Source: Paramecium tetraurelia (Eukaryota). Taken from it: 64,000 bases of DNA. This document shows, piece by piece, positions 2,883 to 50,071 of this stretch; within the stretch, counting starts at the first letter, position 1, and each line of letters begins with the position of its first letter. The DNA is taken from positions 153,363-217,362 of the forward strand of contig CT868044.1 of NCBI GenBank assembly GCA_000165425.1. The letters run 5' to 3'. Below the pieces are notes generated by a model. It was given only the letters and a program-made list of their open reading frames with translations. It did no database searches and was not told the origin of the DNA. The translations under genes and the position numbers were made by a program.

Positions 2883-5821
2883 TCATCCTATTATCTAATT
2901 AAGGTTGTTCTCCTCAATTTCACTTTCTCTTTAAATGTTTTCTTATATTTTCGAATCACTTTCTCCGGGTTCTCTTCCTAAAAGAAGCATTCATAATTGG
3001 CCATGTGATCAATACTAAATTAGCTATCCACATCAGAATTAGCATTAGCATTGGTATTAGAGTTCAATTCATTATCAATTTTTGGAGGTTGGGTGTTACC
3101 ATAAGTACTCTAGATGTAAGTCCTATTTTATGATTTGACTATGTTACCTCAACTCTTCTATTATTAATTAGACTTCCTTGTTCCTAGGCTAAGCAATAGA
3201 CAGAAATTTCATTTTCCGTATCAGCTCTTATTTCTTAGTTTCGTTATTTGTTGCTCTGTCAGGCGATGGCATTTTCTCATTTTAATAGTCGTTAACCTCA
3301 TTGCCTTGAAATAGTTTGCTTTTCCTCCTTTGCACTTGGACATTATTAGGAAATACATAATTTTATCCTTTGGCAACCTTCTTAACTTACTCTTGAATGG
3401 GAGTCAAACTAGACATTGATGAAGTCCTCACTCTTTTGGGCAATGGCAATTTGGCAAAGCTTTGGAACTTTTTCTTTTTTTTCACTTTCTTCTATTCCTC
3501 TTCTGAATTCTTCATATTTAATGACGACTTGCGTAAGCCATCTGACAACTCTACACTCTAATTATCTCTATTTTCATCAATCTTCATCTCATAATTATCA
3601 TCAGCTAACCATTGTCCTCTCTATTTCATTTATGCTTTCTCCTTTTCCTATTCAACAATCTTCTTGATATTTTCAATCTCCTCCTCATAATCATCTACAT
3701 CTGAGCTGTATTCATCATCCTCATCATTTGAATCCAAATTAAAAGTGGTAATCTAGAAGTACTTCTTAATAGCCTAGGCATTCACTTAAACATCTCGAAT
3801 ATGAGAAAGTGCCTTGAATTACTATTTAACTATTTTTCTTTTGAAACAAGGTTGTCTATTATTTTAAACATTAAAAGTTGAATAAATGACCTATTCTTTG
3901 ATTGGAAGATACAGACTCTTTTTACAATTAATAGCTAGATGACCTCTACTTTCACAAATGTAACATCGCAACTTTAACTTCGAGGAATCACTATTGAATA
4001 AGACATTGTGTCTTATTTCATAGAATTTTTGTCTATCAGTTTCGTATTTATCCAATAATTTAAGAAATGCCACTCTAGAAAGTTTGTAAACAACTGAATA
4101 AGTAAGACAACGAGCAGATGCAGTTCTTTTGTATCCAGTGATGAATCCGATTATTCCGAAAATGCCCTTCTTCATGATATGTAACTTAATTCTTTTCTCA
4201 CAGTCTAAAAAGATTTCAACCTACCCTTTATCTAAAAAATACAAAGGGAAATCATCAGTTTCTTCTTCTTGAAGGAAGATGTTTTCTTCTTAGGCATAAT
4301 ATTGTTATTATATTTGTTATGCCAATTCCATAAGGAAATCTTATGAGAAACAAGAGAAGAAATTGCTGTGTGTGAGCATTTTACCCAAGGTTTAATAGAT
4401 CAATTCTTCTCTTAAGGCAGGTGCCAATTTAAGGATCATGGCTTGTTCCAATTCGTGATCTCTGGCCTTTTCGGTTTGCCACAGATGAACTAGGTAAGCA
4501 TCAATACGTGCCTTCAATTTTCGATCCACATTGTGTTCTACCATGAATCTTTAGATGGCATTCACATACTTTCTATAATGAAATAAATTGCTAAATACTG
4601 GAATTTTTATTTGCTTTCGTTCTGAGAGTAAATCATTTCCCATATAGCATTGACTGAATAAGCAAAGACGATGCAAGAGATGAATTGAGTTATGACAGTC
4701 ACAAAAACCTCCCAGAAATTCATAGGTGTAACATCACCATATCCTACTGATATCATCGTTGTTACAGCCCAATAAAATGAGTATAAATGTAATTCTGAAA
4801 TCGGCATGTCTTCATATCCTCCATTGAGAGTTACCACATCGCAACTATTCAACCATGACACACTACCTACTTTCTTGTTCAGTTGTATTCTCCCGACAAC
4901 GAAGAACAGACAAGCAAATAGATGACATAACCATATTATTGTCATCATTACAGTGAGCAATCGATATTTAGCATGTTTTGAAGGCTCGAGTTGCAAGTAC
5001 TCTTTTATCATATCACTAGTTTTATTCACTTCGTAAAGTTTTAAAATGAAGAGAAACTACTCAAAGCCCAGCTTTTTCTCATCAAAGAGTAAAAACCTAT
5101 ACCAAATCAAACATAACAAGGGTATTAAATCCAATGAGAAATAACTCTTTAAATAATTGAAGGCTATCTATTTCCTGTGGCTTATCAACTATCCCTTCTT
5201 GTAGAAGGCTATATTGAAAGACAATAGAATGTCCAACATAAAGATTGTGATTCCTACGTACAAGGAAAATTCCTCGTAGAATTGATAACGCGAAGCCTTC
5301 TTCTCATCTATGAGGGGTTGGTAGGCAAGCATAAATGGAATCTGGAAGAAGAATAAAACCACAAAGATGCTGTTTAGTACCTACCAATACAAATAGAACC
5401 GAGAATCAGGTTCCAGCACTTTTAGCTTTCCCATACATGAAGACATCCCATTAAGGAATCCATTCTTCTGAGTTGGATAAGCATAATCCTTAAATATTTC
5501 CTTCTATCTTAGGTCTATTATTTAAGCCATTGTAACCTGATTCGAGGATTTTTTACCTTTGAAGCATCTCTTAAAAATATTGAGCTCCTTACTATTATTC
5601 TTTTCAAGGGTCCTACGATATTATATTGTCTCATTAGCAACGAACGGGATCACCTTCACCTAATTCTCCTCTTCCAAAGGCGACGTAGATCCCCATTCAA
5701 AAGCACTATCATTCACAATTTATTCCATGTTCATTTCTGTGCCTGACCGATCCCCCAAAATTATGGTTTTACTCTCCTCCTCTTAAATTAGAGGTTATTA
5801 AAGGGAGTCTTTTTAGCTCAT
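2883..5821 (-). CDS. Voltage-gated K+ channel of the CNBD (EAG/HCN-like) class
   Basis: Transmembrane segments, pore YWAVTTMISVGYGDVTP, C-linker, cyclic-nucleotide-binding-like domain (GIFGIIGFITGYKRTASARC), CCHC knuckle, long low-complexity tail. Confidence 0.92.
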
Positions 5822-33819: not shown

Positions 33820-35402
33820 TCATTATTTTGGCAACACATATGTATGTCCTGTCATAAAAATTTAGTTTCCACTACTAGGATCAATCTACACCTATTCCAA
33901 TTATTAATACAAAGGTCTTGGATCATTCTGCAAATCTACAATTATAATTAAATAGATTACTTCTTCTAAGATCTACATCCGGAGTCTAGAGTCCACTGAT
34001 AGATCTACCAGGAAGACGAGTCTCTGAATCTCCAAATTGATATGATTAATCGAATTGTTATTCTTATCTCTATTGAGCTTCAGGTTCTTCCTCTTCTTCC
34101 TATTCTACTTCAGCTTCATCCTCCACTTCTTCTATCTTGCCCCACAACGATTTATCCACAGGAGCATCAGCCTACAATCCTGTTTTTTAGGATAATTCAT
34201 TTAGATCCTCCTCATCATAATATTTGAATGTGGCATAAAGTCCTGGCTAGTCTGCCTTTTTGCATGAGTCCTCAATCACTTATTTAACTGAAGTATGATA
34301 TGAAGAAGGCTCAGCAAAGATACTAGCCATTCCTATAAACCTCATATGAGGGTAACTTGGGGGTGGTCCATATCTTTACATATTTGGTAACCAAGGAGGT
34401 GCTTAGAAATCAGTACAGCCTAATGCACTTCTTAATTCAGCACTCATCTTTCCAGGACAAAAGTTCTTGGCTCTCATTTCCTCTTCTTTACCTTCAAAAT
34501 AGATTTCACCATGTTTTGTCATTGAAGGTTTTGTTTAGTACTTGAAGAAAGCATCATGTAATATTTAATAATCGATATCTAATTTGCCTTGTTTTGGATT
34601 CATTCTTTCTCTCAATTTCTATCTAACCATCTTACCTCCATCTCTATCTACAAATGGATCTCTTAACTTAGCAATTCCTGTCTTCTCTATGTAATCTGGT
34701 AATTGAAATGGCTCTTTCAATATTCCTCTTTTGTTTTACAAATATTTTCTCTTTTATGACCAATGTCTAGGAACAGTCACTGAATTACGTACACTCTTCA
34801 ATTAAATTAGAAACATGGGATCTGGAGATGTGATATCCCAAAACTCAACTAGATCTGGTCTCCTTACTTTCTACTTCAATTCAGCTACTTTCAACCATCT
34901 TAATTATTTTCTTTATTTCTTTGATAATTTAGCTTCTTTCTTTTTACCCTATTATAAATAATTTTGAATTGTCTGATTTGGTTCATTAATTTATTATTGA
35001 ATTTATTATTGTTATTATTATTACTGTTATTCTGCTGCCTACTATTCTTCCTATTCCTTTTCCTTCTCTTTTTCATTCTCATAAACCTTCTCATAAGTCT
35101 TCATCATCAATCTTTCGGAATGTTGATTGAAATTATCAAAAACCTGTTTAAAATTGTCATAATGTTTTCCCGTAATTAGAGCGTCGATCTACACTATTCA
35201 ATCTGATATATACTTCTATCTCTTGAAAGGTCTCCTCATCATAAACAACCTGCTCCTCTTCGGCTTTGACTACCTCCTCTATAATTTCTTACTTTTCGTT
35301 AGTGCATTTCTTTTTGCTCTTGTTGTTCTTTCTTCTCTCTGCTCTCTTGAATTTCTCATACTCCTCCTTTGACAACTTGCTCTTGGGTACCTCTGCCTTC
35401 AT
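33820..35402 (-). CDS. SF3B2: Splicing factor 3B subunit 2 (SAP145/Cus1)
   Basis: RPDLVEFWDITSPDP, VPRHWSQKRKYLQNKRGILKEPFQLPDYIEKTGI, DIDYQILHDAFF, PPWLPNMQRYGPPPSYP. Confidence 0.93.
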
Positions 35403-35468
35403 TAATAAATTAATTAATATATTAAATCAATGATAAGATTATAACAAAATAATAAATAATAATTCCTA

Positions 35469-36639
35469 TCAACAATTATACACATATAACTTATTAGTCG
35501 ATCCTCCAAACAGTATTTTATTATCTATCCATGTACAAGCCATTGCTTTTCCTTCTCCATTCAATTAATACAATGGTACCTCTCCTCTTAGATCCCACAA
35601 GTAAGTATTTCCATCCATAGAACTCTAAAATTGATTTTATACAAAGTATTACCACTATGATTTATCCAATAGCATTAGCAGCAATGCTAGTCAACTAAGA
35701 CAATGAGCTCTTATATATTTTAATCAATTATTCACTCAAACTATCCCACAATTTAATATATCCATCTTCATGAACTGATACGATTTATTAATTATTTTCT
35801 AAGTAGCATAATCCTATGATAGCTGAATCCTTAGCAAACAATTATTTGTTTATTGATTCTGTTCTCTTATTAAATAGGCAAATGGAGTGATCATATGACC
35901 CAGTCAGAATAGTGCTATTTCTAATCCATTAACAACAAGTTATCTGTTATTAATGCACTTTAAAGTTCTAAACCATTTCAATCACCTACTTTTACACTGC
36001 ACTAAGATCAAAGAAAATGAGTTCTCCATTGGCTGTACCAACACAAAATTCATTAGTGTTCTTCTTATTGATACAACTGCATTCTCCATATGATGGTAAA
36101 GAACCTTATGCAATCAACTCCAAATTGTCTGTAAGTCTTTATACTCTGACAGTGCAATCCCAATGGGTTGAAATTATGATGTTTTCAAAAATAGTAAAAC
36201 TCTTTGCCATTTTAGTTTTGTATGTTTTCAGAATTTTACCCTTTTCAGTACAAACCACAATATCTCCATTAGATAAACATGTTATGATGTGATTATTTAA
36301 TCTACCTATTGCTATGATCCAGTCATTCATATTTATAGTTTGCTTAAGTTTAGGTTCTGGGACAGCAAATAGATATTCTATTTACAATGTTTTTTCAGTT
36401 GCAATTTCATTCGATGTAATGAATTCATGTAGAGTTGATCTCAAACTGATTCCATTAATAAAGAAATCGAATAATTAATTGTATTCTTAATCAGGGTTCT
36501 CAGCTGACAGTAATTATTAAATAAGAGAACTGAGATCACTTTAATTCATATCTCCTTGAACAGCTATTTCATTGTTGCTAATCTGATAATCTTATGGCAA
36601 GCTTGTGACAAATTTTACTATATATTCACTATTGTTCAT
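35469..36639 (-). CDS. NLE-domain WD40 protein, WDR12/Ytm1-like ribosome biogenesis factor
   Basis: N-terminal FDFFINGISLRSTLHEFI...EKTLQIEY (NLE/UBL domain) then WD repeats (STHWDCTVR, TGSYDHSI, SMDGNTYLWDLR). Confidence 0.8.
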
Positions 36640-37505
36640 TAATAAAAAATTTAATACATTTTTTTATATAAATTTCCTATGTATTTTTCTATTGAGATTA
36701 AATGGACTAAATCTATTTATCACTTTTGGCTAAATAATTTGTACAAATTCACAAACGGAATTGTAATCGCACCAGATTATGAAATTTAATGATATCTCTA
36801 TTTTAAACTCATATTATGGATAAACAAAAGAATTATTATATGAATTATTATACCCATATCTACCATATTCTCTATTCAAAACCAATTCATATTTTTTATT
36901 CTTTTAGTTTTTAATCATAACTAAGAAAGAGTAATATTAAACTTTTATTTTATAATTCTATTCTGCATTCATTAATTTCAATAGATGAAGTGAGGCTCAT
37001 AGAATTATTTCAAAATATTAAATATTTCAATTCAAATCAATTTTTTATCAAAATTATACCGAAAACTAGATTTGCCCTAAGATCATATTAAATCTTTTAA
37101 TTTTGAAATTTCAATAGAATTGAAATTCAAAATACATTTCATTCCTTAAACCAAAATCAATAGTTATGAAGATGATAATTTTTGGATTAAGATTTGATGA
37201 CTATCACATAAATTTCTTAGAATAAGATAAATATTAAGCAAGTAACTGATATTCATGAGATAATTAAAATATAATTAAAGATTAAGAAGATATAAATTAA
37301 ACAGTAAAAGTTAAAATAGTTTAAATATATTTAAATTTAATTAATAACACATTAAAATGTTTATTGATTTATTTCTGGTAATAAATACAATTTTTTGAAG
37401 GCAAACTTAAAATTTGGAATTCTAAAACTTGTTTACATGATGATTGAATGTGCTTCTAGTTGTAATTATGTGATTTATATGATTATTTACTTTTTTATTA
37501 ATTAA

Positions 37506-38000
37506 ATGATAAACTGTCAATAAAATCAACGATAAAATTTTTCCTATGTTGTATGTAGATATAATAGAGAACAGAGATCAACATCAGTGAAAGTTGAAAG
37601 ATTGAAATAAATAAATATACTCAACGAAATAAAGCAAGATTATTAAAAAGGACTGCAATTGGGTAGAATGCGTGAAAATGCATTGAGAATTATAAACATG
37701 AAATTAGAAAAGAATAGATTAAGAAAGAAGTCACTTGAAACCAAGACAGAAGTCGAGGAGGAACACTTTCCGTAAATTAATTAGGTTTTGAAACCACCTT
37801 TGCCCTATAGATCGATTCTTGTCAATAAGGAAAACACAATTCAAATGCCAAGTATATTATAGAAGTAGATGGGAGTTACAAAGTAAATCTAGATAAAAGC
37901 GAGGAGATTGTCTTAAAGAATAAGAATGAAAAATAGTGAGCCTACCATAGAATTTAGTCCTTGGGAGAACTAAGAAAATTAGGAATTTGATTTTATTTGA
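37506..38000 (+). CDS. Hypothetical basic protein
   Basis: Open frame after one inferred intron, ending ...IEFSPWENQENQEFDFI*. Confidence 0.55.
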
Positions 38001-38027
38001 TTTTCTTATAATTTTAATTAGAATTAA

Positions 38028-39392
38028 ATGTAATAATAATTTTCTAAAAGTGCATTATCGGATTTCAATTTAGTTAAAAAATTGGGAGAAGGATACTATT
38101 CATCTGTTTACTAAGTATGATTGAGATTTGATTATCCCTAGGTTTAAAGAAAATGTGATGGGTAATACTATGCTATAAGGAGAGTGAAAATACATTAACA
38201 TAGTCTTAAAGAGAGAGAAGATGCTTTGAATAATATTAGAACATTAGCTTCTCTTGGTTAATATAGTAGAATTTAAGGATGCTTTTATAGATCAAGATAA
38301 TAGAATTCTTAATGTGATCATGGAGTTTGTATCAGGCGGAGACTTATTACAGATATTGAAGTAAGGTAAATAAGAGGGAGGGATTTAAGAGAGTGAAATT
38401 TGGACAATATTAATATAGATCATTTTAGGAGTGAAAATACTACATGATAATGGCATCTTGCATCGAGATCTTAATTTAGAAAATGTGTTTGTAGTCAAGA
38501 CTCCTAAAGGAAACATTTATAAAATAGGAGATTTCAATATTGGGAAAGTAACTCGTTAGGGAAATGCAGAGATTGGACCTCCATGTATTGATATCAATTT
38601 TATAATAGATGATGTTGCTCCTGAAATGTGGAAAGGTGAACAAAACTCACGTCCTTGTGACATTTGGTTAATTGGTTGTATAATCTATGAACTGACAGCA
38701 TTTCAACATCCCTTTAGAGCCAGAGATATAGAGTCCTTATACAAAAAGGTATAAATTGGTAAATATGATCCGATTCCATCCAAATATAGTGAGGATCTAT
38801 AACAAATTTTAAGAATGCTCTTACAAGTAAATCCAAAGAATAGACCAAATTGTGATTAAATCCTCAAAGATCCAAAGGTGGTTAAGAATAGCGGATCATT
38901 GTTAGTAGAAATTGAGTAGAAGTTAGGAAAATTAAATGATAATTAACCAAACCCCAAACGTGAAAATAAGAGCAAAAAATTACACTCTAAATAAGGACTT
39001 AATATTGAGACTAAAAATCCTGTAACTTCTTAACCTCGAATTAATTTAGAATAACAATAATAATAGGAATAACAATTAAGAAAAAAATCGGTCATTCCCT
39101 CCTCGTAAGAAGCTCTTTTGAAAAGGAAGCCTCCTTTGGCTAAACCTCAAATTGCCTCAGCTTAAAAAATTAAAAATCATCCTTAGACTCCTTAATATTA
39201 GGGATAAAAAGTATAATATAAGGATCAAAATTTAAAGTATTTAATTGTATTTAATTAAGAAATTAAGAACAAAAAAATTGTAATAATCTTAAATTACAAC
39301 AATGCTTAGGACAGCAACATCAATAACAAATGGAACAACAAATATAATAAAAGAGACAGCATGGCGCAGGAATATAATAAATATCAAAATGA
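38028..39392 (+). CDS. NIMA-related (NEK) kinase-domain protein, probable pseudokinase
   Basis: NEK-like context (KEREDALN, DIWLIGCIIYEL, PFRARDIESLYKKV), but VAIK reads YAIR, the alphaC Glu reads Asn and HRDLK reads HRDLN. Confidence 0.85.
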
Positions 39393-39682
39393 ATCTTAGT
39401 ATATTTTGAATATTAATTTGATGTTTTTGATTTTTAAATCATTAATTTTATACTATCATACTCTTAATTTAATTTTAACTTGCTTTATACTTAATTAAGG
39501 ATGTAATTAGATTGTTCATTCTTCATATATTGCATCTAATATTAATTAAGGTTCTTAGTACTATTTTCATTCTCTTTTGTTTAATCTCAGAACTACTATA
39601 CTCATATTATCACTTTAATATTAATATTTTATTAAATATAAATTTATTTATACATGTGTCATAATCTAAAACTAAATAAGTC

Positions 39683-40289
39683 TCATTTCAAAGCATTTGT
39701 AATTGCTTAAGCTAATTTCACAAGTTCACTAACATAACTATATATTAATTAAATGCTTACTTTGCTTGGAGTGAATTTCTATTTGAGTAAGATGATTCGA
39801 TCTTATTTCTTAAAGATACAATCTCATTCAATTATATGTTCTCAACCAATGATCTTTTTTATTAAGTTCTGTAGTTTAATTCAACAGGTTAGTAAATTGT
39901 TGATTGTTGTCTATAACTTTATATATTGTTTCTAAATCCCATTGAACTAAGACTCATTAATCTAATACCTTATTGTTTTCTTAGGAGACTACTCGTCATA
40001 CTTTTTGGTTGATGTGATTTTAGATTGTAGAGAGGAGGTTGATTAAAGTCTTGTGTATGAGAAATCTCTTATTCTAGCCTATAAATTGTCGAATGAAGGA
40101 ACAGTAGGCAAGTTTTCTTTTCTGCCATAGATTATCGTTTTACCTAAACGAATTAAATTGCTTGGATCCAGAGTTATTATTGTATTGAAAAGGTGGTATT
40201 AATTTATCTTTGACTTGATTCCGTATGGTTTTGATATCAAAATTGATATCGAGTGGTCTTTTGGGCTTTTCTAACCAAGTCTTTGACAT
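39683..40289 (-). CDS. Hypothetical protein
   Basis: ATG at 40289 (MSKTWLEKPKRPLDINFD...), coding-like with inferred short introns; no family recognised. Confidence 0.5.
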
Positions 40290-40826
40290 AATTTATATTA
40301 ACGAAATATATTTATTAATTTAAATTACAATTCAATTCCAAAAATATTGACTTATTGAATTTATTCTAAAAAGTGCCAAATCATCAGACCTTCATTCGAT
40401 AATTAAGAGATTCATGTGATTATAATTTGATTATTAAAAATATAATTATAATCTCGCGGTTTATATTAATAATCGTAGTTATATGTTAAGAATTATAATA
40501 AATATGGATAAGTTTAAGAATAATTTACATAATTTTATGGTTTGAATTTGGTTGTGATATTCATTTTATTATTTGTACATAATTGTTTGCGTAAGACAAC
40601 ATAATTGGAACAATTTGCTTGTAATGTTTATTGATTAATAATTTAAACAATCTTTAATCTATATGAAGGTGAAAATCACTTGTATTCACATATAAGGATT
40701 TTTAGAAAAGAGACTTATTTAATAAAATTATCCCTTTAAATTTGACATCGAAATTCTGATCAAATTTTGTAAATAGACTTTAAATGAGAAATCTTATAAT
40801 TTAATAATTTTTATTACAATAGAAAA

Positions 40827-43800
40827 ATGTCGTAAGATGATTATTTTAACTATATTGATATGGAAGAGTGTGGCTAACAAATCGATTTCGAATAATTAGG
40901 GCAATTTGGCAGAGAACAATAAAATTGTACTTTTAATGATTATCAAAGCTTAAAATGGGCAATAGTTTATTTAAATAGTCGATCCCAATAATATTGAAGA
41001 TTCAGGATTTGTGTTTCTGTTGTAAGAAGCAAGCACCTCTCAATTAGAAGAAGCTATGTTGCAAGATGTTTCCATGTTTTTCAATCGAGAGGCCAAGCTG
41101 TATAATTACCTTGCCAATTTATTTCAATTGACGGATTTAGACATGCAAGGTACATAATCACATCCAATATTTAATAGGTGCCCCTGAGTACATTAATCAA
41201 TTAACTAAGTTATTGAAGATGTTCTTCTAAATTCATGAAGTGGGATAGCATTCAGAGTTTTCATATTAATTAGCATAATAATATGGTTTAAAAGATTTTA
41301 AGACAGGATATCCTTTTGGATTCCTAATTAATAGTGATCAATCATTGATTCTTCTCTTGTTGAAGATTATTTTAAGTGAAGAAATCTTAAATAAGGAAAA
41401 TGATTTCTTCTCTCAAATTAGAATGTATTTGCCAAGATATTTAATATTTTCAATGAATCCCCCCAAGCCATTTATAAGTAGAACTCAATTGCAATCATTG
41501 CAAAACTGTGTAGTCAATAAAGTCAATAACGAACTCTTTGAAACAAATTTCGAAAGACCCTACAAACTAGATTTGTTGGCATTGTCATATTTCTCAGATC
41601 CATAATTAAATTTTCAGTTGTTTAAAGAAACAGTCGATATACTGAGATCTATCCTTGAGAGGTAACCATATCAATCCATATCTAATAGTCTTTTGGAGCA
41701 GAAGAATTCTTAAACGGATATAAATAGAGAAATCCAGAACTTACTGCAATTTTTCTTGGCATTTACAACCAATCAAGAAATATTGATATCCTTTTTCAAA
41801 CTCAACTTACACAAGACCCTCTATAATAATCTGAGATTATGCTAGCCAATCTTTGGATGCAACAATCCACCTCTCTGGTCCAAAGAACCTTTAATAATTG
41901 AGCAAATAGTAACTTTGATTGTGAGAATTATGAGTTCTGATCAAGTGGATCAATAATTCATTGACATTCTCCATGAAGATTTCACTTTTTTTTTGAAACA
42001 CCAGAAATTAGATCTCATATACAAAGTTCTCTTGCCTATTTTGAATAGTGAACAAGGCAAATTGGTACCTGTTTGTTTTCATCCCAAATTGAGTGTGTCT
42101 GAGAGTAAGGCTGAAACTGAGAAGTTCCTCTCAAATCAAACCAAAACTATGGCAGGATCCTCGACATTAGTTACTGAATTGCTAACTAGAAATCAATGCG
42201 ATAAAATAACTTAATTAGTATAAGACAATCTCAACAAAAATATCCAGAAGTAATAAATTCCGAATAAAATCAAAAATGAATAGGTCTAGATGGAACTAGA
42301 GTTTAATGATTAAGCAATGTAAGATCTATTTTAAGAGGATGTTTAATGGGAGAAATTTTAGTTTGAACCCCATAATGTGGTTTAGTAAAAATAGCCAATT
42401 CCTCTTCAATAAAATATTATCATCAATGAAAATCAGAGACAAATTGCAGGTTCTTGGATTCATCTGCATTCGTTTAGTGCATTCAATCCTCATTTTGATT
42501 CTTAAATTCTGACTAAAGTATTAGACAATAGAACTAATGTATTATTCATTTTTGAAATGATGGTAGGTTAAGAGAATGTCAAGCTTGTATGTTTTGTGAA
42601 TCATTTAATTTAAGATGGAAGGAGATAAAATTATGTATAGGCGAGATCAAACGATTCTTCCTTTTATGTAATGATGGTGTAAGATGAACATTTCTGGCAT
42701 GTGAATGCATTGGATGGGAAGCCTCATGTCTTATTAGATATTTAACAACACATGGTTCAGATCAGTCATCATAATGAGCCCATTGCTTGTATTAACTTCT
42801 CTGATTTTCAGTAGAGTAAGTTTGGATTTCCATTTAAAAATTTGCAAGAGAAGACCCTCTTAATGGATCAAATTAATGCTGCTTTGTAGGGCTTAGAGTG
42901 TTATTTGTTATAGATAGCAATACACACTTTTGATGTTAATAAAGATAATTTATTTGAAGATGATGTTCAATCATTGAAAAAGAAGTACGAGAAACATATG
43001 AATTATTACTATTCTTAATTGAGAATGCAAAACATTCAATTTATTCCTCAAACAGTAAGTGGCAAGGAATTGAGTTAGTTGTTGGATGAGAATCTAGAAA
43101 TCGAGTAATTGAAAGAGTATTCTATCAATGATATCAATGTGATTAAGCCAGTTACTTAATAAATATAGATTAAAAGTAAATAATAGAAGCCATTGTTGAC
43201 TTATTTTGAATAGAAGATAGGTGGTATATTCATGATATTGGATTATGTTAAGAAGTATTTAGATTAAGTGTAGGCAGAGAAGTAATATAAAGATTTGGTA
43301 AACGAATTGGGCATTTTGTGTTAGATTGAGGGATTTCAAGAATAGATTGTTTAAAGTGAAGGGTTCTTGCAGCAATTATTGGCATTGGCTTATTTGAATA
43401 AGAAGCAAGAGTGTAAGGAGATCTACCAGAAGATCAATTCATTGGTTTATTCACAATTGATTCAGTTGTTGTAGGAGAAACCATACCTTAAGATAGTTGT
43501 GATATTGGAGCATAAACTCTTGGAGAAGATAGTGAGTAAGACAGAATAACAATTGAATTTGATGAGTCAAAATGCTCAACCTTAGGCATAGGTGAAATTT
43601 GAATAGCCCAAGATGCTCTTAATGAAGAAGCAGGCTGCTAATTAAGGAAAACCTAAGGGTATTGGATATGGAGACATTGAATACAAGGGATTCAAATATA
43701 TTAACGAGTAATAGCAATTCAATTTATAGCAATAAAAATAGTAATAAGAACCAATTGTGAATTAATTGGAGAAGAAATTTAATGATCAAGACATAAATTT

Positions 43801-46800
43801 GGAGAATCTCTTAAATTGTATAATCCAATTGTTGGATCTTTAATTTATAAATGCAGGACTACTTGATTCTATCCAATAATCTAAAATAATCGACTTATTG
43901 ATTAAATATTTGTAGAATGTCAACATAACAACATTGGAGGGTTCAAAGACATTTAGTCAGATCTTATAGATAATAGAATGTTTAGCTTAAAGAGAACTAA
44001 CATTGCAATTATTCATATCAAAAGAAAATACCTGTTTGTTCAGATAGATGGAGTCCTTCAATCAATAAGTAATAATGTTTATTAAGACATTCAATTCTAA
44101 AATAGAAGAACTAAATAAATTTTTAACCTTGTATCAATATGTGGAAAACTGTTTGTATGCTACCAGACTCATAACTATAAAATACCTATCCTAAGATTAA
44201 TAGAATAATGTAGATGTTAAGATTAATATGCATCAATTTTATCGACCCTTTATGAAAAGATTGGCAGTTGGAAAGTGTGAGATAAAGACTGATGCAGATT
44301 ATCTGTCCCATATGAAAGAGTACTATTAATAAACGAACAATCCATCACAAAATAAGATGTAGAAACTAGTCTCTGAAATATCAACAATCGAAGAGAATCT
44401 ACCCCTTGAAGCAACCAATTCCATCTTCTTAAGATATGATACCGATAGAATGGATTGTATGAGGACCATCATTTTTGGTGCCAGTGGTACACCTTATGCC
44501 CATGGAGCATTCTTGTATGACATGTTTTTTGGAGATGATTATCCCTAAAGACCTCCAAAGATGAAGTTGGCAACAACCGGACATGGCAAAGTAAGATTTA
44601 ATCCCAATTTATATAATTGTGGAAAGGTGTGTTTGAGTTTACTTGGTACATGGGGTGATAATTGGATTGCTAATTTCTCTACAATTTTATAGATATTGGT
44701 TTCAGTTCAATCTATGGTGATGAGTGAATATGTTATGTTTAATGAACCAGGATGGGAATCTTAGATGGGAACTCCTAATGGTGAATAGGCCAATAGAGGA
44801 TATTGCAATTTCATTAAGATTTAGAATATTAGATATGCTATGGTAGAATAATTACAGAATCCACCCAGAGGATTCGAAGCAGTAATAAAGAAGAGTTTCT
44901 ATTTGCGTAAGGAATTGATAATGAAGGAGATTGAATTATGGGTAGAATAAGCGAATTTGCCAGCCACTTACAATCAAACTTAGAATCAATGTATTTACAC
45001 TCAATAACCATAACAATACAAACAAGATCTAATTAAGGTATATGATGAATTGATGGTGGAATTGGAGAAATTGAAATTCAATATTGGAAAGGATTTCCAG
45101 ACCATTTCAAATGAGAAGAAGAAGGAAATCACCTTTAATCTAGACTATAAGTAATAACAATAACAATAATTAACCAATAAAAAGATAATGCCTTAGGGTT
45201 TGAATATCAATGATATTGACATTAGTTATAATAACAATGTGCAATAAAGACAGTTTGATTCAAATGATCAGAATCTACAGAATTTGATGAGTAGATATAT
45301 AGGAGTTGTGGGTCTGGATGCAGTCAAGAAACAAAGTGAATCCACTATTTTCATCCATACTTTGAATGGCCTAGGCATTGAAATAGCAAAGAACATAGTG
45401 TTATCAGGTGTAAAGAGAGTGATCCTATTCGATCCTTGTCTAGTCCAGATGAGTGATTTGGGCAGTAATTTCTATTTGACAGAATAGGATGTGAATAAAA
45501 GAAGAGATTTTGGTGTTTTAAATAAATTGAAGCATCTGAATCCATATGTCAAAATTGATGTTCTCTAAAACAGTCTAGACGAATTGAATTTAGATGAGAT
45601 CTAAGTGTTTGTCACTTAGGATCCATCTATTGCAAGCATAGCATCCAATTAAAATAAACTTGCAGTTGTCTTGGCACAAACACGGAACATTTTTGTCAGA
45701 ATTATAACTGATTTTGGTAATGAATTCACAGTGGTTGACAAAGATGGTGAATAATCGTCAGAAGTCAATATTGAGAATATATCTAATAATGTTGTAACTT
45801 TGTTTAAGAATCAAAATCATAATCTAACTGAAAATGACTTAGTACTTATTTAAGAAGTCAAATAAGAATAAGGCATTGGAGAGAGTTACAATTAAGTATT
45901 CTAAATAAAGAATGTTAAAAGATAATCATTTGAATTAGTGACTAATAGAGTATTTACTAATTATGTTAGTCATGGTATAGCTTATCAATAGAAATAACCG
46001 ATTAACTTATTGTTTGATAGAATCTAGAAGGTAATTGGCTCATTCGATCATTATTGCGATAATGTTGGAACTTTTGATGGAATTGATAAAATTAAAAGGG
46101 ACATCATTCATTTCTGTTTGAATACTACTACAAATGATTAATTGACTGACAATTGGGATGTTGAAAAAATTAAAATGTTCATACTCTCAATGAGACAATA
46201 AAATCTAAGAGAAATCCTCAATCTTAAATACCAAGAAGATGTGCTTTATAAATATCAAGAAGAGTTAATATCATTGTTGACATTATTGTCAATCAATACA
46301 CAATTCCAACCTTTATGTGCTTTAATTGGTGGAATAGCAGCCTAAGAAGTGTTGAAAGCCATAAATAAAAAGTATACTCCAATCCATTAAGTCTATGTGT
46401 AATCATTTGAAGATGTGCTTCCATTTAAATTGACTGAACTTAATTTTGCCCACATTGGTCCATCAAACAATCTTGAAATCAATTTGAATAAATACCAAGA
46501 ATGTATGTAAAAGTTCGGATTCAAATCGTATTAAAATACAAGATATAATGATTTGGTCAACACCGTTGGAAACACACAAAAAATATTCAATGCTGACGTA
46601 TTTGTAGTTGGAGCTGGAGCCATTGGGTGTGAATTGCTTAAGAATTATGCAATGTTAGGTGTTAGTAAATCTGGAAAAATATATGTCACTGATCCAGACA
46701 TCATTGAAAATTCAAATCTAAGTCGTTAATTCCTCTTTAGAGAAAAACACATTAGAAAACCTAAAAGTTTGACTGCAGCTGCCGTTGTCAAATAGATGAA

Positions 46801-48367
46801 TCCAGATATCAATGTAGTGGCAAGATTAGATAAGGTATGTCAAGAGACTCAAGACATCTATCATAATGGCTTCTACACATAAATGAAGTGTGTGACAAAT
46901 GCTTTGGATAATGTATAGGCTAGATTGTTTATTGATTCTAAATGCGTTGAAAATAAAGTGTCTTTAATTGAAAGTGGTACCTTGGGACCAAAAGGACATG
47001 TATAATCAATTATCCCTGAAGTTACAGAAAGCTATGCAAGCAAATAGGATCCTGAATAAAACAATGACATACCCTATTGCACTTTGAGAATGTTCCCAGA
47101 ATCCAATATCCACTGTTTAGAATGGGCACGTGATAAATTCGAATAGTATTTCTTTAGAAAACCATAAGCTTTGGTGCAATTAATGTAGGATCCCTCTCCA
47201 TAATAATAAACTGTTGACTTGGCCATCAAAGTGTTAAAGAAGTACCCTACGACATTTTAGTAATGTGTATAAATGGGAAGGCTGAAATTCCAAAAGCTCT
47301 TCAACAATGACATCATGGCCTTAATGAATGCCTACCCCATTAATTCTGTAACCAAAGAAGGCAAATTATTCTGGGCTCCTCCCAAGAGACCTCCTAAGCC
47401 CATAGAATTCTATGGAGAATCTGCCTTCAAATTTGTTGAGGACTTTGCTCTATTAACAGCATAAATCTACAATATTGCAATTCCCAATTAATATGATTTG
47501 AATCTCTTACTGTAGAACTTTTAGATTCCTAAGATGGACATAAAAAAGAATAAGATTCAAGAGATAGTCGAAAAATAAGATAAAAATAATTAACAATAGT
47601 AGATGGAAGTGGAAGTCAAAAATTATGATCAGCTTATTAAAGAAGCAAAAAAATTATTGAGTAAGGTTAAACCAAAATTGCCATAGCCTTAACAATTCGA
47701 AAAAGATGACGACACTAATCATCATGTATCCTTCATTACTGCTGCCACTAATGGTAGAGCAATTAATTATGGTATCTAATAAGTTGATTGGATGTGGACC
47801 AAATTAAAAGCAGGAAGAGTAATATTATTTATTTATCATCTTTCTCTAGATTATTCCAGCCATGGCCACAACGACTTCATGCATTGCTGCTCTACAGACT
47901 TTGGAATTGATTAAGATTCTCTTGAATTCATCTTAGTATAGAAATACATTCTTAAATCTTGCCATTCCATTTATGATGTAGAGTGAACCAGGAGAAGTTG
48001 AGAAGGTAATTATACTTTTATTAATGTTTTCAGTTTTAATTGAAAAATGGATTAGACATATCAATCTGGACTAAGTTGAAACTCGAGGTTAAGAGATTGA
48101 CTGAACCATTACAATATATAGTGAAACAAATAGAAAATATGGTAGGAGAAGAAATAAAGAGTCTTTAATAAGGGGCAAAAGTGTTCTATATGAAATAGAT
48201 GTTACCGAAAGATGACGAAGAAAGATATAATTATATCAACACTCCAATTTACCAATGCATATAGGTATGTTTTGTAATTTATAATTTAGTTTATTAATGA
48301 TTCAACATAAATAAATGTACAAATAAGTGACAACAAATCGTTATTAGTGCAAATCACTTTGGTTTGA
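40827..48367 (+). CDS. Giant fusion protein: helical N-terminal region, BIRC6/BRUCE-type UBC (E2) domain and complete UBA1/UBA6-type ubiquitin-activating enzyme (E1), ~2468 aa
   Basis: Introns 40927-40948, 41150-41177, 47819-47849, 48006-48033 and 48265-48289; one exon 41178-47818. [12 protein letters not shown]...YPQRPP...[21 protein letters not shown] (Cys 44630-44632). E1: SRY...[66 protein letters not shown] (Cys 47078-47080), [19 protein letters not shown]. Confidence 0.93.
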
Positions 48368-48572
48368 TTTATAAAATGATATATTTCTGTTAGTTATGAA
48401 ATATTTATCTATTTTAATTCAGTTATATTGAATCTCTTTCGTTTTATAAGTGATATCTCATTGACTCTCTTTTTAAGAATAAGAGAACTTGATAATAAAT
48501 CAATTTGGAGTAGTCTATAAAATATATAAATAAAATCAAATATAAAATCAATATAAATCTTATAATTAATAT

Positions 48573-50071
48573 ATGTTTAGAAACAGGAAATACTTCTGTC
48601 AGTCCATAACATTTTATCAATAAGAATAACTACTAAACAAAGTGCTGAAGGACTGCGAAGACTGCTTCAAACAATTGGATCAACATGGAAAATCTATAAA
48701 GAAAGACACAAAAGACATGTTCATTAAATTTACACAAGCAAAAGTATTGATTCATTTGAATCATTAGTTATAAGACCAAAAGAAATTATTAGAGACTGAC
48801 TCTGTTGGCGTATTTTAGATGCTATTGGACATTATCGAAAATGTAGCACATGATAAACCTTTGATGACATATATATTGACCACCATCGATGCAATAATAT
48901 CTGGTATAATTATGTAATGAGATCATAGAAAATCAGAGACTATTCAAATAATTCATGCGAGCATTGACACCACAGGTTGTACCTAAATTAAAATAATTCT
49001 TGTTTCTTGATGGATATGACAAAGTGGTTTATGAAGCAGCAGCTAAGATAGTCACCATGATCATAGCAGATGAGGGAGGAAATGATGCAAAAGAATGGGT
49101 CATATTATTTATTGGAGGAATAGGTATATTATAATATTAATATAGGAAATAAACTAAAGATTTCAGATTAAATGATTATGCCAATATGCGTGCATTTTCT
49201 TAAACACGATTCATTAGCAATATAATTTATAAAGAGTGGTGGAATTAAGATGTAATAATCTTATATCTATATACATATAGAGTATCTAATCAATTAACCA
49301 AATATCCAACAGACTTGCATATAGCTTATTACACAATTTTAGCATTATGGTTATTGAGTTTCACTAATGAATCAATTCCATTATTCAATGACCCACAACT
49401 TGGTTTGATCAGAATGATTATAGAATCAGTATAAAAGATTTCAAGAGAAAAAATCTTGAGAGTTTCCTTTGCTTGTTTCAAGAATTTGGTTGATGTATCA
49501 GCCTAATGCATTGAATTGATGGTTGACAATGGATTAATCAAAGTGGTTGATTTATTGTTGAAAGGAAATCTCAAGGATTAAGATTTAATAGATGATATCA
49601 AATATGTTGGAGAGATATTGGAGAAGAACATGAAGATTTTAACGTAAATAAATTGATTAAGAATGTTAGTTCATTTGAAAAATATGTGAAGGAATTAAAT
49701 GCTCAAAATTTAACTTGGAGTCCAGTACATACTGAGAAATTCTGGAAGGAGAATGTCAAGAAATTCGAAGAAAATGATTTCTTACTTATTAGGTAATTAA
49801 TGTATTTTTAGAGTATAGGAAATTAGCAGAAATCTTGAAATCAAATAATAATCAAAATATTGCTGTGGCTTGTTATGATTTGGGAGAATTTTGTAGATTC
49901 CATCCATTTGGTAAAGTGTAATATGAATTATGATTTAAATTCATTAGTGTTTTGGAATAATTAAATGCAAAATAAGAAATTATGAAATAAGCAAGGAATG
50001 ATGATTAGATGATTAGAGAAAATGCCTTGTTGTCATTACAAAAAATCATGTTGCATAATTGGTAAGTTTGA
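48573..50071 (+). CDS. ATP6V1H: V-type H+-ATPase V1 subunit H
   Basis: SREKILRVSFACFKNL, SFEKYVKEL...LTWSPVHTEKFWKENVKKFEENDF, AVACYDLGEFCRFHPFGK, ALLSLQKIM; many short introns. Confidence 0.93.

Follow-up and report, generated by a model that had tools for sequence, protein, structure and literature searches.

An expressed Paramecium tetraurelia gene encodes a single chain with a predicted BIRC6-type E2 domain and a UBA1/UBA6-type E1

The gene and its transcript

In this work we have investigated a gene on the forward strand of a 64-kb window of Paramecium tetraurelia DNA, the window being the whole stretch that was analysed. It is a genuine, expressed gene and its product is one E2–E1 chain of 2,459 residues. 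Translated with the ciliate code (table 6), the frame 41132..47986 stays open for 2,284 codons and is the longest open frame of the window, the runner-up having 594 aa. The spliced gene model gives 2,459 aa with the sole TGA at the terminus, and GT..AG ends were found at all six introns. The ends given in the initial annotation, 40827 and 48367, agree with this RNA-supported model. The gene is built as follows:

40827..48367, + strand: full coding region in seven exons (RNA-derived contigs and reads, GT..AG ends, spliced translation)
40827-40926, 40949-41149, 41178-41661, 41689-47818, 47850-48005, 48034-48264 and 48290-48367, + strand: the exons
41662..41688, + strand: in-frame intron of 27 nt, missing from the RNA-derived contigs X3 and X8
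40927-40948 (22 nt), 41150-41177 (28 nt), 47819-47849 (31 nt), 48006-48033 (28 nt) and 48265-48289 (25 nt), + strand: the other introns

The initial annotation had treated 41178-47818 as a single exon lying in one frame. The segment is indeed in frame throughout, but it is not one exon, since X3 and X8 both lack the 27-nt intron at 41662-41688. Its further proposal, that a single open frame runs through both the E2 and the E1, was borne out: the coding frame of exon 41690-47818 has no TGA in 2,043 codons, compared with 42.7 expected from base composition and with 71 and 90 when the remaining frames are read. The linker between the two enzyme halves (44945-45284) had been described as free of TGA and introns, and so it is, with no TGA in the coding frame, as against 3 and 7 in the others, and with no splice in the RNA-derived contigs.

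The fusion is also carried by RNA. The spliced RNA-derived contig X3 (7,465 nt) covers 40853-48442 and is the only one to bridge the UBC–E1 linker in one piece, the X8 contigs being overlapping pieces there. The depth of raw stranded RNA reads was 9.5-11 over 44876-45397 in both runs and was even through the linker, and no pile-up of read begins or ends was listed for this interval. Both halves are transcribed in a single spliced mRNA. X3 keeps the intron 47819-47849, and the splice joint 47818>47850 is present in 2 + 7 raw RNA reads. Additional shorter transcripts may exist alongside the full-length mRNA, because oligo-dT read depth climbs toward the 3' end of the gene. The product aligns without gaps to the P. 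octaurelia protein P0002, which also has 2,459 aa, with an identity of 93-98% per region.

Domains of the chain

The following features were assigned along the chain:

42450..42940, + strand: beta-rich domain, TLDc-like predicted fold (AF2 and Foldseek)
43271..44263, + strand: helical region, homologue of the BIRC6 C-terminal arm (family profile; start approximate, mapped from profile positions)
44264..44950, + strand: predicted BIRC6-type UBC (Pfam UQ_con; match to 3ceg_A)
44951..45277, + strand: Q/N-rich tether of 109 residues from UBC to E1, with no TGA and no intron
45278..46543, + strand: E1 inactive adenylation domain with FCCH insertion, FCCH at about 45782-45994 (Pfam, PDB alignments)
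46544..48005, + strand: E1 active adenylation domain and SCCH, split by intron 47819-47849 (Pfam ThiF, UBA_E1_SCCH)
48034..48367, + strand: putative UFD of the E1, encoded by exons 6-7 and followed by the stop (sub-threshold E1_UFD match)

Pfam recovered the domains that had been anticipated under table 6, namely UQ_con at ORF residues 1082-1197 (E 4.4e-18), ThiF in two stretches and UBA_E1_SCCH (E 7.6e-63), together with E1_FCCH (E 1.3e-10). The positions given earlier for the UBC cysteine (44630), the GAGAIGCE loop (46610) and the PYCTL cysteine (47078) proved exact. The first of these, Cys1243 (codon 44630-44632), lies inside a stretch of 13 residues and downstream of an (H/F)PN motif, as in the UBC fold, and is invariant in all 18 aligned fused proteins. 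The UBC scored 200.9 bits against 3ceg_A, the UBC of BIRC6, and 104.2 bits against UBE2O, 98.9 against UBE2Z and 49 against UBC9. It aligns with the BIRC6 UBC with no gap across the five-residue insertion loop (within a stretch of 12 residues), and the NEPGW of its alpha3 insertion corresponds to NEPGY of BIRC6; the roles of these features are described in passages of PMC13623948, which also defines the loop. The assignment of the UBC to the BIRC6 type is supported by a score about twice that of UBE2O or UBE2Z and by the BIRC6-like character of the arm upstream of it.

The profile of 18 fused proteins matched BIRC6 residues 4163-4779 with 438 bits (E 8e-130). About 430 residues of this match lie in the BIRC6 arm that precedes the UBC. 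The top Foldseek match of the N-terminal model was 8e2h, the 'C-terminal arm of BIRC6' (E 2.6e-4), and a second structural look with VIA returned generic armadillo matches at Z 13-15, all tied; an AF2 model of 860 residues from the N-terminal region is poor (pLDDT 60). With residues 1-1120 as a query against the collected proteins, phmmer gave eight matches, all from Paramecium. Pfam scans of the ORF and of 13 fused relatives detected neither a BIR domain nor the PF12356 'BIRC6' domain. The beta-rich domain is a lead only: its AF2 model (pLDDT 68.5, pTM 0.61) had TLDc folds as 10 of 10 Foldseek matches to the PDB at E<=0.001 (TMt 0.51-0.61), while Pfam placed no family in this 216-aa piece and the Pfam families matched by the 18 fused-protein members do not include TLDc.

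The initial annotation had also suggested a complete UBA1/UBA6-type E1, and the sequence supports a canonical enzyme of this type with all its modules, the UFD being sub-threshold in this protein. The ATP loop GAGAIGCE (46610-46633) is followed by NLSRQ, and the catalytic Cys2059 (codon 47078-47080) in PYCTL by FEKDDD. G1903, G1905, G1908, C1909, E1910, N1938, R1941, K1954, D2002 and C2059 are invariant in 18/18 fused proteins. Alignments to PDB entries of UBA6 (451 bits) and Uba1 (429 bits) run end to end across about 850 residues, both beginning at ORF residue 1383-1385. E1_UFD reached E 0.0066 and 17.5 bits in the Paramecium protein, against a Pfam cut-off of 25, and was matched in 7 of the 18 family members; in UBA6 the alignment of the family profile extends as far as residue 1031 of 1052. 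Pfam gave no match to E1_4HB in the Paramecium fusion protein. A predicted complex between residues 1115-1400 (UBC) and 1860-2459 (AAD-SCCH-UFD) of P0002 scored 0.17 against a mark of 0.34, with no controls, and is uninformative.

The fused family and its relation to UBA6

The initial annotation had suggested searching other ciliates for this architecture. A UBC motif followed by E1 motifs was present in 93 of 120 relatives among the matches listed, and 92 of these 93 have both catalytic-Cys motifs, with 577-720 residues (median 668, n=92) between the UBC Cys motif and the ATP loop. Fused proteins with a named source come from five genera of ciliates and from a Picozoa single-cell assembly, and the architecture recurs in independent genomes and transcriptomes of these five genera and others. 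UQ_con together with E1 domains was also found in 16 of 83 long proteins among those listed (3,589-4,989 aa). In their N-terminal parts, relatives have ZZ, CCCH, UBA + RanBP zinc finger or ankyrin modules, which is as would be expected of substrate- or ubiquitin-binding adaptors. Some of the 'linker' stretches are conserved in the family consensus.

Between paralogues the UBC has changed least, with an identity of 84% as against 64-78% in the E1 and 50% in the N-terminal regions; the tether shares 66% with that of the paralogue P0006, compared with 84% for the UBC. A different picture is given by the P. tetraurelia paralogue P0005, in which the UBC cysteine is gone (..RRVWLDLL..) and all E1 motifs are intact. 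The corresponding P. octaurelia copy is annotated as two proteins, the UBC-only P0099 and the E1-only P0167. An E1 half may therefore have a use even where it lacks a working UBC partner in its chain. The P0099 and P0167 records both list a contig of 279,845 nt.

To which E1s is the fused form related? Our E1 trees were unrooted, with no outgroup, and were made with LG+G4 on 63 rows and with C20 on 36 rows hand-picked from the 63. In the 36-row tree all 19 fused E1s are separated from UBA1 and UBA6 by a branch whose SH-aLRT support is 100%; the 63-row tree gave the identical split. The fused E1s have their own side of the tree, outside the UBA6 clade, and therefore are not UBA6 orthologues. 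A sister relation to UBA6 is possible, because the position of the root is not set by these trees. The family profile scored UBA6 at 1,063 bits and UBA1 at 993 and 977 bits, and KGH, TDPD and HI.KPKS are common to the fused E1s and UBA6 rather than UBA1. The loop preceding the E1 cysteine (KGHVQ..TESY.S..DP) is common to the fused E1s, UBA1 and UBA6; certain residues of this loop read the ubiquitin tail, and its presence fits ubiquitin as the modifier. After the catalytic cysteine the fused E1s have a signature of their own, CTLKMFPE..HC.EWARD, and their gate-helix segment has a median of 81 residues (75 in this lineage), compared with 85-87 in UBA6.

A close known system is human BIRC6 (BRUCE/Apollon) with its dedicated E1, UBA6. 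It has in common with the Paramecium protein the UBC type (201 bits), insertion loop and alpha3 insertion, with the fused family about 430 residues of the C-terminal arm, and it likewise has a large scaffold that ends in the UBC. However, in the Paramecium protein the E2 and E1 are in one chain, which is not so in BIRC6, and with about 4,800 aa BIRC6 is twice the size; the Paramecium protein has no detected BIR or PF12356, whereas the metazoan BIRC6 proteins among the matches listed carry PF00653 and PF12356. According to passages of PMC13623948 and PMC12999496, human BIRC6 depends on one particular E1, UBA6. UBE2O and UBE2Z resemble the Paramecium UBC as FNPN-type UBCs with extensions, but they reach only half of the BIRC6 score (104 and 99 vs 201 bits) and both lack an E1 module. 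Canonical UBA1 has the same module order and active-site residues as the E1 half; unlike it, UBA1 stands alone, lies across the fully supported branch and scores lower than UBA6 with the family profile.

In bacterial CBASS Cap2 an E2-like domain is followed by an E1-like domain, so both domain types occur in one polypeptide in the same N-to-C order as here. The Paramecium E1 instead follows the pseudo-dimeric plan of the canonical UBA1/UBA6 enzymes, with FCCH, SCCH and a putative UFD. A full-length match to a Cap2-type bacterial E1–E2 fusion was not obtained: the PADLOC E1–E2 models scored no more than 38 bits, chiefly across about 90 (never more than about 130) residues of the adenylation-domain/nucleotide-binding core. 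Because the match is limited to this core and the E1 is canonical and pseudo-dimeric, the comparison points to an independent origin of the fusion in eukaryotes. In the reviews consulted (passages of PMC12355090), E1–E2 fusions are mentioned for prokaryotes alone.

A possible self-contained ubiquitin pathway

The gene model, the spliced transcript, the domain identities and the conserved active sites with their spacing are the observations on which our reading is built. We consider it likely that the product is a self-contained E2–E1 enzyme, consisting of an arm-type scaffold, a BIRC6-type UBC, a tether and a canonical ubiquitin-type E1. We infer ubiquitin as the modifier, its transfer from the E1 to the chain's own E2, and an E3-like choice of substrates. 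The chain runs from an armadillo-like region, whose last 330 or so residues are a homologue of the BIRC6 arm, through the UBC and the tether of about 110 residues to the E1. The E1 half would adenylate ubiquitin and then hold it as a thioester on Cys2059, from which it would pass to Cys1243 of a tethered UBC, belonging either to the same chain or to a partner. UBE2O and BIRC6 are E2/E3 hybrids and, as in these, substrates would be picked by the variable N-terminal region. The outcome would be an insulated, self-contained E1–E2(–E3) pathway.

Could the E1 half be mainly a general, shared enzyme that charges free E2s or acts in trans on other chains, with the fused UBC being one client or a regulator and the pathway not insulated? 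This would suit P0005, with its intact E1 motifs, replaced UBC cysteine and lower conservation of the UBC (72%) than of the E1 (81%), as well as the retention across the family of the UFD, the usual E2-docking domain. Nevertheless, 92 proteins preserve both cysteines, the BIRC6-type insertion loop and the spacing, and in the lineage of this gene no module is better conserved than the UBC, so we regard a shared E1 as doubtful. We think it improbable that the modifier is another ubiquitin-like protein, specific to the fused-E1 clade. The separation of this clade from UBA1 and UBA6, its post-Cys signature and its shorter gate-helix segment would agree with such a modifier, but the adenylation-site and crossover-loop residues are common to the fused E1s, UBA1 and UBA6, and BIRC6-type UBCs are ubiquitin E2s according to abstracts and to passages of PMC13623948. 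It is very unlikely that one chain is made and then cut in the tether, leaving the E2 and E1 to work as separate proteins: the tether is Q/N-rich and less conserved than the UBC, but the distance from the UBC cysteine to the ATP loop stays within 577-720 residues in the 92 proteins, parts of the 'linker' are conserved, and neither a protease site nor a processing signal was seen. Finally, the break of the X8 contigs in the linker might suggest neighbouring genes joined through misassembly or read-through, but the TGA-free frame, the spliced contig X3 with even read depth and the repeated architecture in independent genomes and transcriptomes of ciliates and others make such an artefact hardly credible.

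If the E2–E1 chain is a self-contained enzyme, where does it come from? The Rosetta-stone idea, that BIRC6-type E2s have a dedicated E1, is strengthened by our comparison because the fused family is broad. Perhaps a BIRC6-type E2/E3 hybrid and its dedicated E1 formed an ancient eukaryotic unit, whose fused form survived in ciliates, Picozoa-like and other protists, in part as giant proteins (4,000-5,300 aa). Animal UBA6 would then be either the sister of the E1 half or a descendant that split off from it, and the exclusive UBA6–BIRC6 pairing of vertebrates a relic of a single-chain E1–E2–E3 machine. The unrooted tree allows this history provided that its root falls on the UBA1 stem, and the higher profile score of UBA6 and its motifs in common with the fused E1s agree with it, but we hold it only as a speculation with the odds against it.

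Eukaryotic E1, E2 and E3 enzymes are taught as separate proteins, and to our knowledge bacterial defence systems are the only known source of single-chain E1–E2 enzymes. The earlier statement that no functional characterisation was known agrees with our search of the full-text literature, which, with passages of papers including Burroughs et al. and PMC4327156, yielded no eukaryotic E2–E1 fusion, only bacterial ones being described; the eukaryotic family thus seems to be undescribed. If our reading is true, this conserved joining of a canonical E1 with a BIRC6-type E2/E3 hybrid would amount to a natural, insulated pathway of ubiquitylation, and to a ready-made system in which to study the geometry of E1-to-E2 transfer, in cis versus in trans. 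It would lend independent evolutionary support to the rule that BIRC6-type E2s require a private E1, and it could serve as a template for engineering orthogonal ubiquitin cascades. For the protists themselves, the variable N-termini (ZZ, CCCH, UBA, TLDc-like) suggest a set of substrate-specific, all-in-one ligases.

One open frame and one transcript

The E2-E1 fusion proposed in the initial annotation is real. When TAA and TAG are read as Gln, as ciliates do, 41132-47986 on the plus strand is a single open frame of 2,284 codons, by far the longest in the window (the runner-up has 594 aa), and in this one frame Pfam places, in sequence, UQ_con, E1_FCCH, ThiF in two stretches and UBA_E1_SCCH. 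The coding frame of the main exon has no TGA in 2,043 codons, compared with 71 and 90 in the other two frames and 42.7 expected from base composition. The motif positions proposed earlier proved exact (UBC Cys codon 44630, GAGAIGCE 46610, E1 Cys codon 47078), and the UBC-E1 linker (44945-45284) is, as claimed, without TGA in the coding frame, with 3 and 7 in the others. The only observation that needed correction was that of a single exon: the frame is open, but it is split by a short in-frame intron, the third of those listed here.

Introns of the fusion gene
40927-40948, plus strand, intron 1, GT..AG, seen in RNA
41150-41177, plus strand, intron 2, GT..AG, seen in RNA
41662-41688, plus strand, intron 3, 27 nt, in frame, GT..AG, inside the supposed single exon
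47819-47849, plus strand, intron 4, 31 nt, GT..AG, removed in 2 + 7 raw reads and an X8 contig end
48006-48033, plus strand, intron 5, GT..AG, seen in RNA
48265-48289, plus strand, intron 6, GT..AG, seen in RNA

The spliced coding sequence (40827-48367) gives 2,459 aa with a single TGA at its end, and the protein aligns without gaps with P0002, a P. octaurelia protein of 2,459 aa, at 93-98% identity per region, which assigns the window to a species of the Paramecium aurelia group.

The transcript was established by mapping two raw oligo-dT RNA-seq runs with the same species label (X21, X22) and contigs of two older runs (X3, X8) to 40700-48500. An X3 contig of 7,465 nt spans 40853-48442 unbroken, bridging the linker; five short GT..AG introns are absent from it and it therefore comes from spliced RNA. 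The X8 assembly in the linker consists of overlapping broken pieces, so only X3 crosses it as one piece. Read depth in the linker bins is 9.5-11 in X21 and X22 alike, with no pile-up of read beginnings or ends listed there among the raw reads, and it climbs toward the 3' end of the gene, as is usual with oligo-dT libraries. The first mate of raw read pairs in both runs is almost always on the minus strand, which is what standard stranded libraries should give for an mRNA from the plus strand. The X3 contig keeps the intron at 47819-47849, though raw reads and the X8 contig end show it removed; with the intron kept, the frame continues as far as the TGA at 47984-47986, and the end of the E1 would be lost, its putative UFD included. 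In the T-run at 41977-41986 the same contig has one T more than X8 and the small number of raw reads at that point; a strain difference or a homopolymer error is the probable cause. The neighbours within 33923-39774 and 48880-49656 are ordinary housekeeping genes.

Neighbouring genes
SF3b145-like protein, minus strand, DUF382 and PSP
Notchless-like protein, minus strand, NLE and WD40
Protein kinase, plus strand
V-ATPase subunit H, plus strand

The E2 half and the N-terminal region

Compared with solved structures, the UBC segment scored 200.9 bits with the BIRC6 UBC, 104 with UBE2O, 99 with UBE2Z and 49 with UBC9. Its alignment with BIRC6 runs without gaps through a 20-residue stretch that takes in a five-residue insertion loop; in the alpha3 insertion the window protein has NEPGW where BIRC6 has NEPGY. 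[quoted passage not shown] A profile of 18 fused proteins (A1) matched BIRC6 residues 4163-4779 with 438 bits, so that the likeness to BIRC6 extends over about 430 residues upstream of the UBC core. The N-terminal 860 residues encoded by the main exon were modelled with low confidence; this model's top Foldseek match, at E 2.6e-4, was the 'C-terminal arm of BIRC6', and VIA gave tied armadillo-repeat matches only. Neither a BIR domain nor PF12356 was found by Pfam in the window protein and the fused relatives scanned. In the IAP sense, therefore, the window protein does not count as an orthologue of BIRC6; what it has is the catalytic end of one.

The piece at 42450-42940 is a beta-rich domain with a TLDc-like predicted fold (pLDDT 68.5), and all ten Foldseek matches in the PDB at E<=0.001 were TLDc domains (TBC1D24, NCOA7, OXR-family). 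Pfam assigned the piece to no family, and none of the 18 related proteins scanned matched a TLDc family. The TLDc proteins TBC1D24, NCOA7 and those of the OXR family bind V-ATPase.

The E1 half and the family of fused proteins

Aligned end to end, the E1 half scored 451 bits with UBA6, 429 with yeast Uba1, 410 with human UBA1 and 297 with UBA7. The ATP loop, NLSRQ, Lys, Asp, the E1 catalytic Cys and the UBC Cys are invariant in 18/18 fused proteins. A putative UFD lies in exons 6-7, where Pfam gives 17.5 bits, under the cut-off of 25; the domain was matched in 7/18 relatives, and the A1 profile aligns to UBA6 as far as residue 1031 of 1052. After the catalytic Cys, fused E1s show a signature of their own, CTLKMFPE..HC.EWARD, and their 'gate helix' segment is shorter, with a median of 81 residues (75 in the window protein's lineage); eight rows named UBA6 have 85-87 residues in this segment and fifteen rows named UBA1/E1 have 82-95.

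Could the fused E1s be orthologues of UBA1 or UBA6? In an unrooted LG+G4 tree of 63 rows, 28 unfused UBA1-, UBA6- and related rows were set apart from all others by a branch of length 0.4 and 100% support, and the opposite side held 29/29 fused E1s with six rows lacking a UBC (apparent fragments or split models). In an unrooted LG+C20+F+G4 tree of 36 of these rows, 19 fused E1s were exactly one side of a branch (SH-aLRT 100%, length 0.49), and UBA1 was likewise one side of a 100% branch. The fused E1s are thus neither UBA1 nor UBA6 orthologues, and the trees are compatible with a single origin of the fusion. If the root lies on the UBA1 stem, fused E1s would be the sister group of UBA6-like enzymes. 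Two observations speak for this: the A1 profile scores UBA6 70-85 bits higher than UBA1, and KGH, TDPD and HI.KPKS are common to fused E1s and UBA6 and not to UBA1. These common states could equally be ancestral.

The UBC-to-E1 part was searched against proteins of 1,123-3,576 aa, giving 162 matches at E <= 0.001. Among the best 120 of the 162, 93 have FNPN..GKVC followed by E1 motifs (92 of them with both Cys motifs), one, P0099, has the UBC motif alone, and 26 lack FNPN..GKVC, among them ordinary UBA1s of fungi and animals, P0057 (YNPN for FNPN, the motif otherwise the same) and P0005, in which the UBC Cys is replaced. The UBC Cys motif and the ATP loop are 577-720 residues apart, with a median of 668 (n=92, among the matches listed). 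The architecture sought in other ciliates was found, among the matches listed, in Tetrahymena (two species), Ichthyophthirius, Pseudocohnilembus and Platyophrya, besides several paralogue lineages of Paramecium (tetraurelia, octaurelia, pentaurelia, sonneborni) and an EukProt record of Picozoa sp. COSAG06; the remaining matches listed are mostly metagenome proteins. Of 83 longer proteins listed, 16 (3,589-4,989 aa) carry UQ_con and E1 domains, and the other 67, nearly all metazoan BIRC6, have no E1 domains. The giant fused relatives (P0259-P0274, P0136 and P0137; 3,589-5,319 aa) bear ZZ, CCCH, UBA plus RanBP zinc-finger or ankyrin modules N-terminal of the UBC-E1 unit: a Paramecium paralogue of 4,620 aa has UBA and RanBP zinc-finger domains, the Picozoa-like P0137 (4,621 aa) matches BIRC6 4287-4811 and has ankyrin repeats, and others have ZZ or CCCH fingers.

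Paralogues, known systems and a proposed cascade

Compared with the P0006 paralogue group, the window protein is most conserved in its UBC module (84% identity), with about 50% in the N-terminal regions, 66% in the tether and 64-78% in the E1. In P0005, the P. tetraurelia paralogue with the replaced UBC Cys, the E1 motifs are intact and the UBC is less conserved than the E1 (72% against 81%). Its P. octaurelia counterpart appears as the UBC-only P0099 and the E1-only P0167, each recorded on a contig of 279,845 nt. This lineage seems to be in the course of losing its E2 or of splitting it off. If the pattern is real, the E1 half can persist without an E2 of its own, which weighs against a strictly cis-only function.

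Among known systems, the human pair of UBA6 and BIRC6 is the nearest in relationship and bacterial Cap2 the nearest in architecture. On the window protein, Cap2 models match no more than the nucleotide-binding core (<=38 bits), which points to a eukaryotic fusion independent of Cap2. In the literature covered by full-text searches, among it a review of E1 from 2025 (PMC12355090), two papers on UBA6-BIRC6 structures and two surveys of evolution, 'E1-E2 fusion' is applied to bacterial proteins alone; Burroughs et al. (2008) is a likely place for a list of domain architectures. In public databases the fused proteins bear automatically assigned names, 'UBC core domain-containing protein' for example.

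The interpretation in the initial annotation is largely correct, and the finding is wider than was supposed there, a protist-wide family of fusions between a canonical E1 and a BIRC6-type E2, some of them giants. With its gene, transcript, domains and conservation established, the fusion protein is best read as a self-contained cascade. The E1 half would activate a modifier, which we infer to be ubiquitin, and charge Cys2059, from which it would be handed over to Cys1243 of the tethered BIRC6-type UBC, while the N-terminal scaffold would pick the substrates in an E3-like manner, as in BIRC6 and UBE2O.
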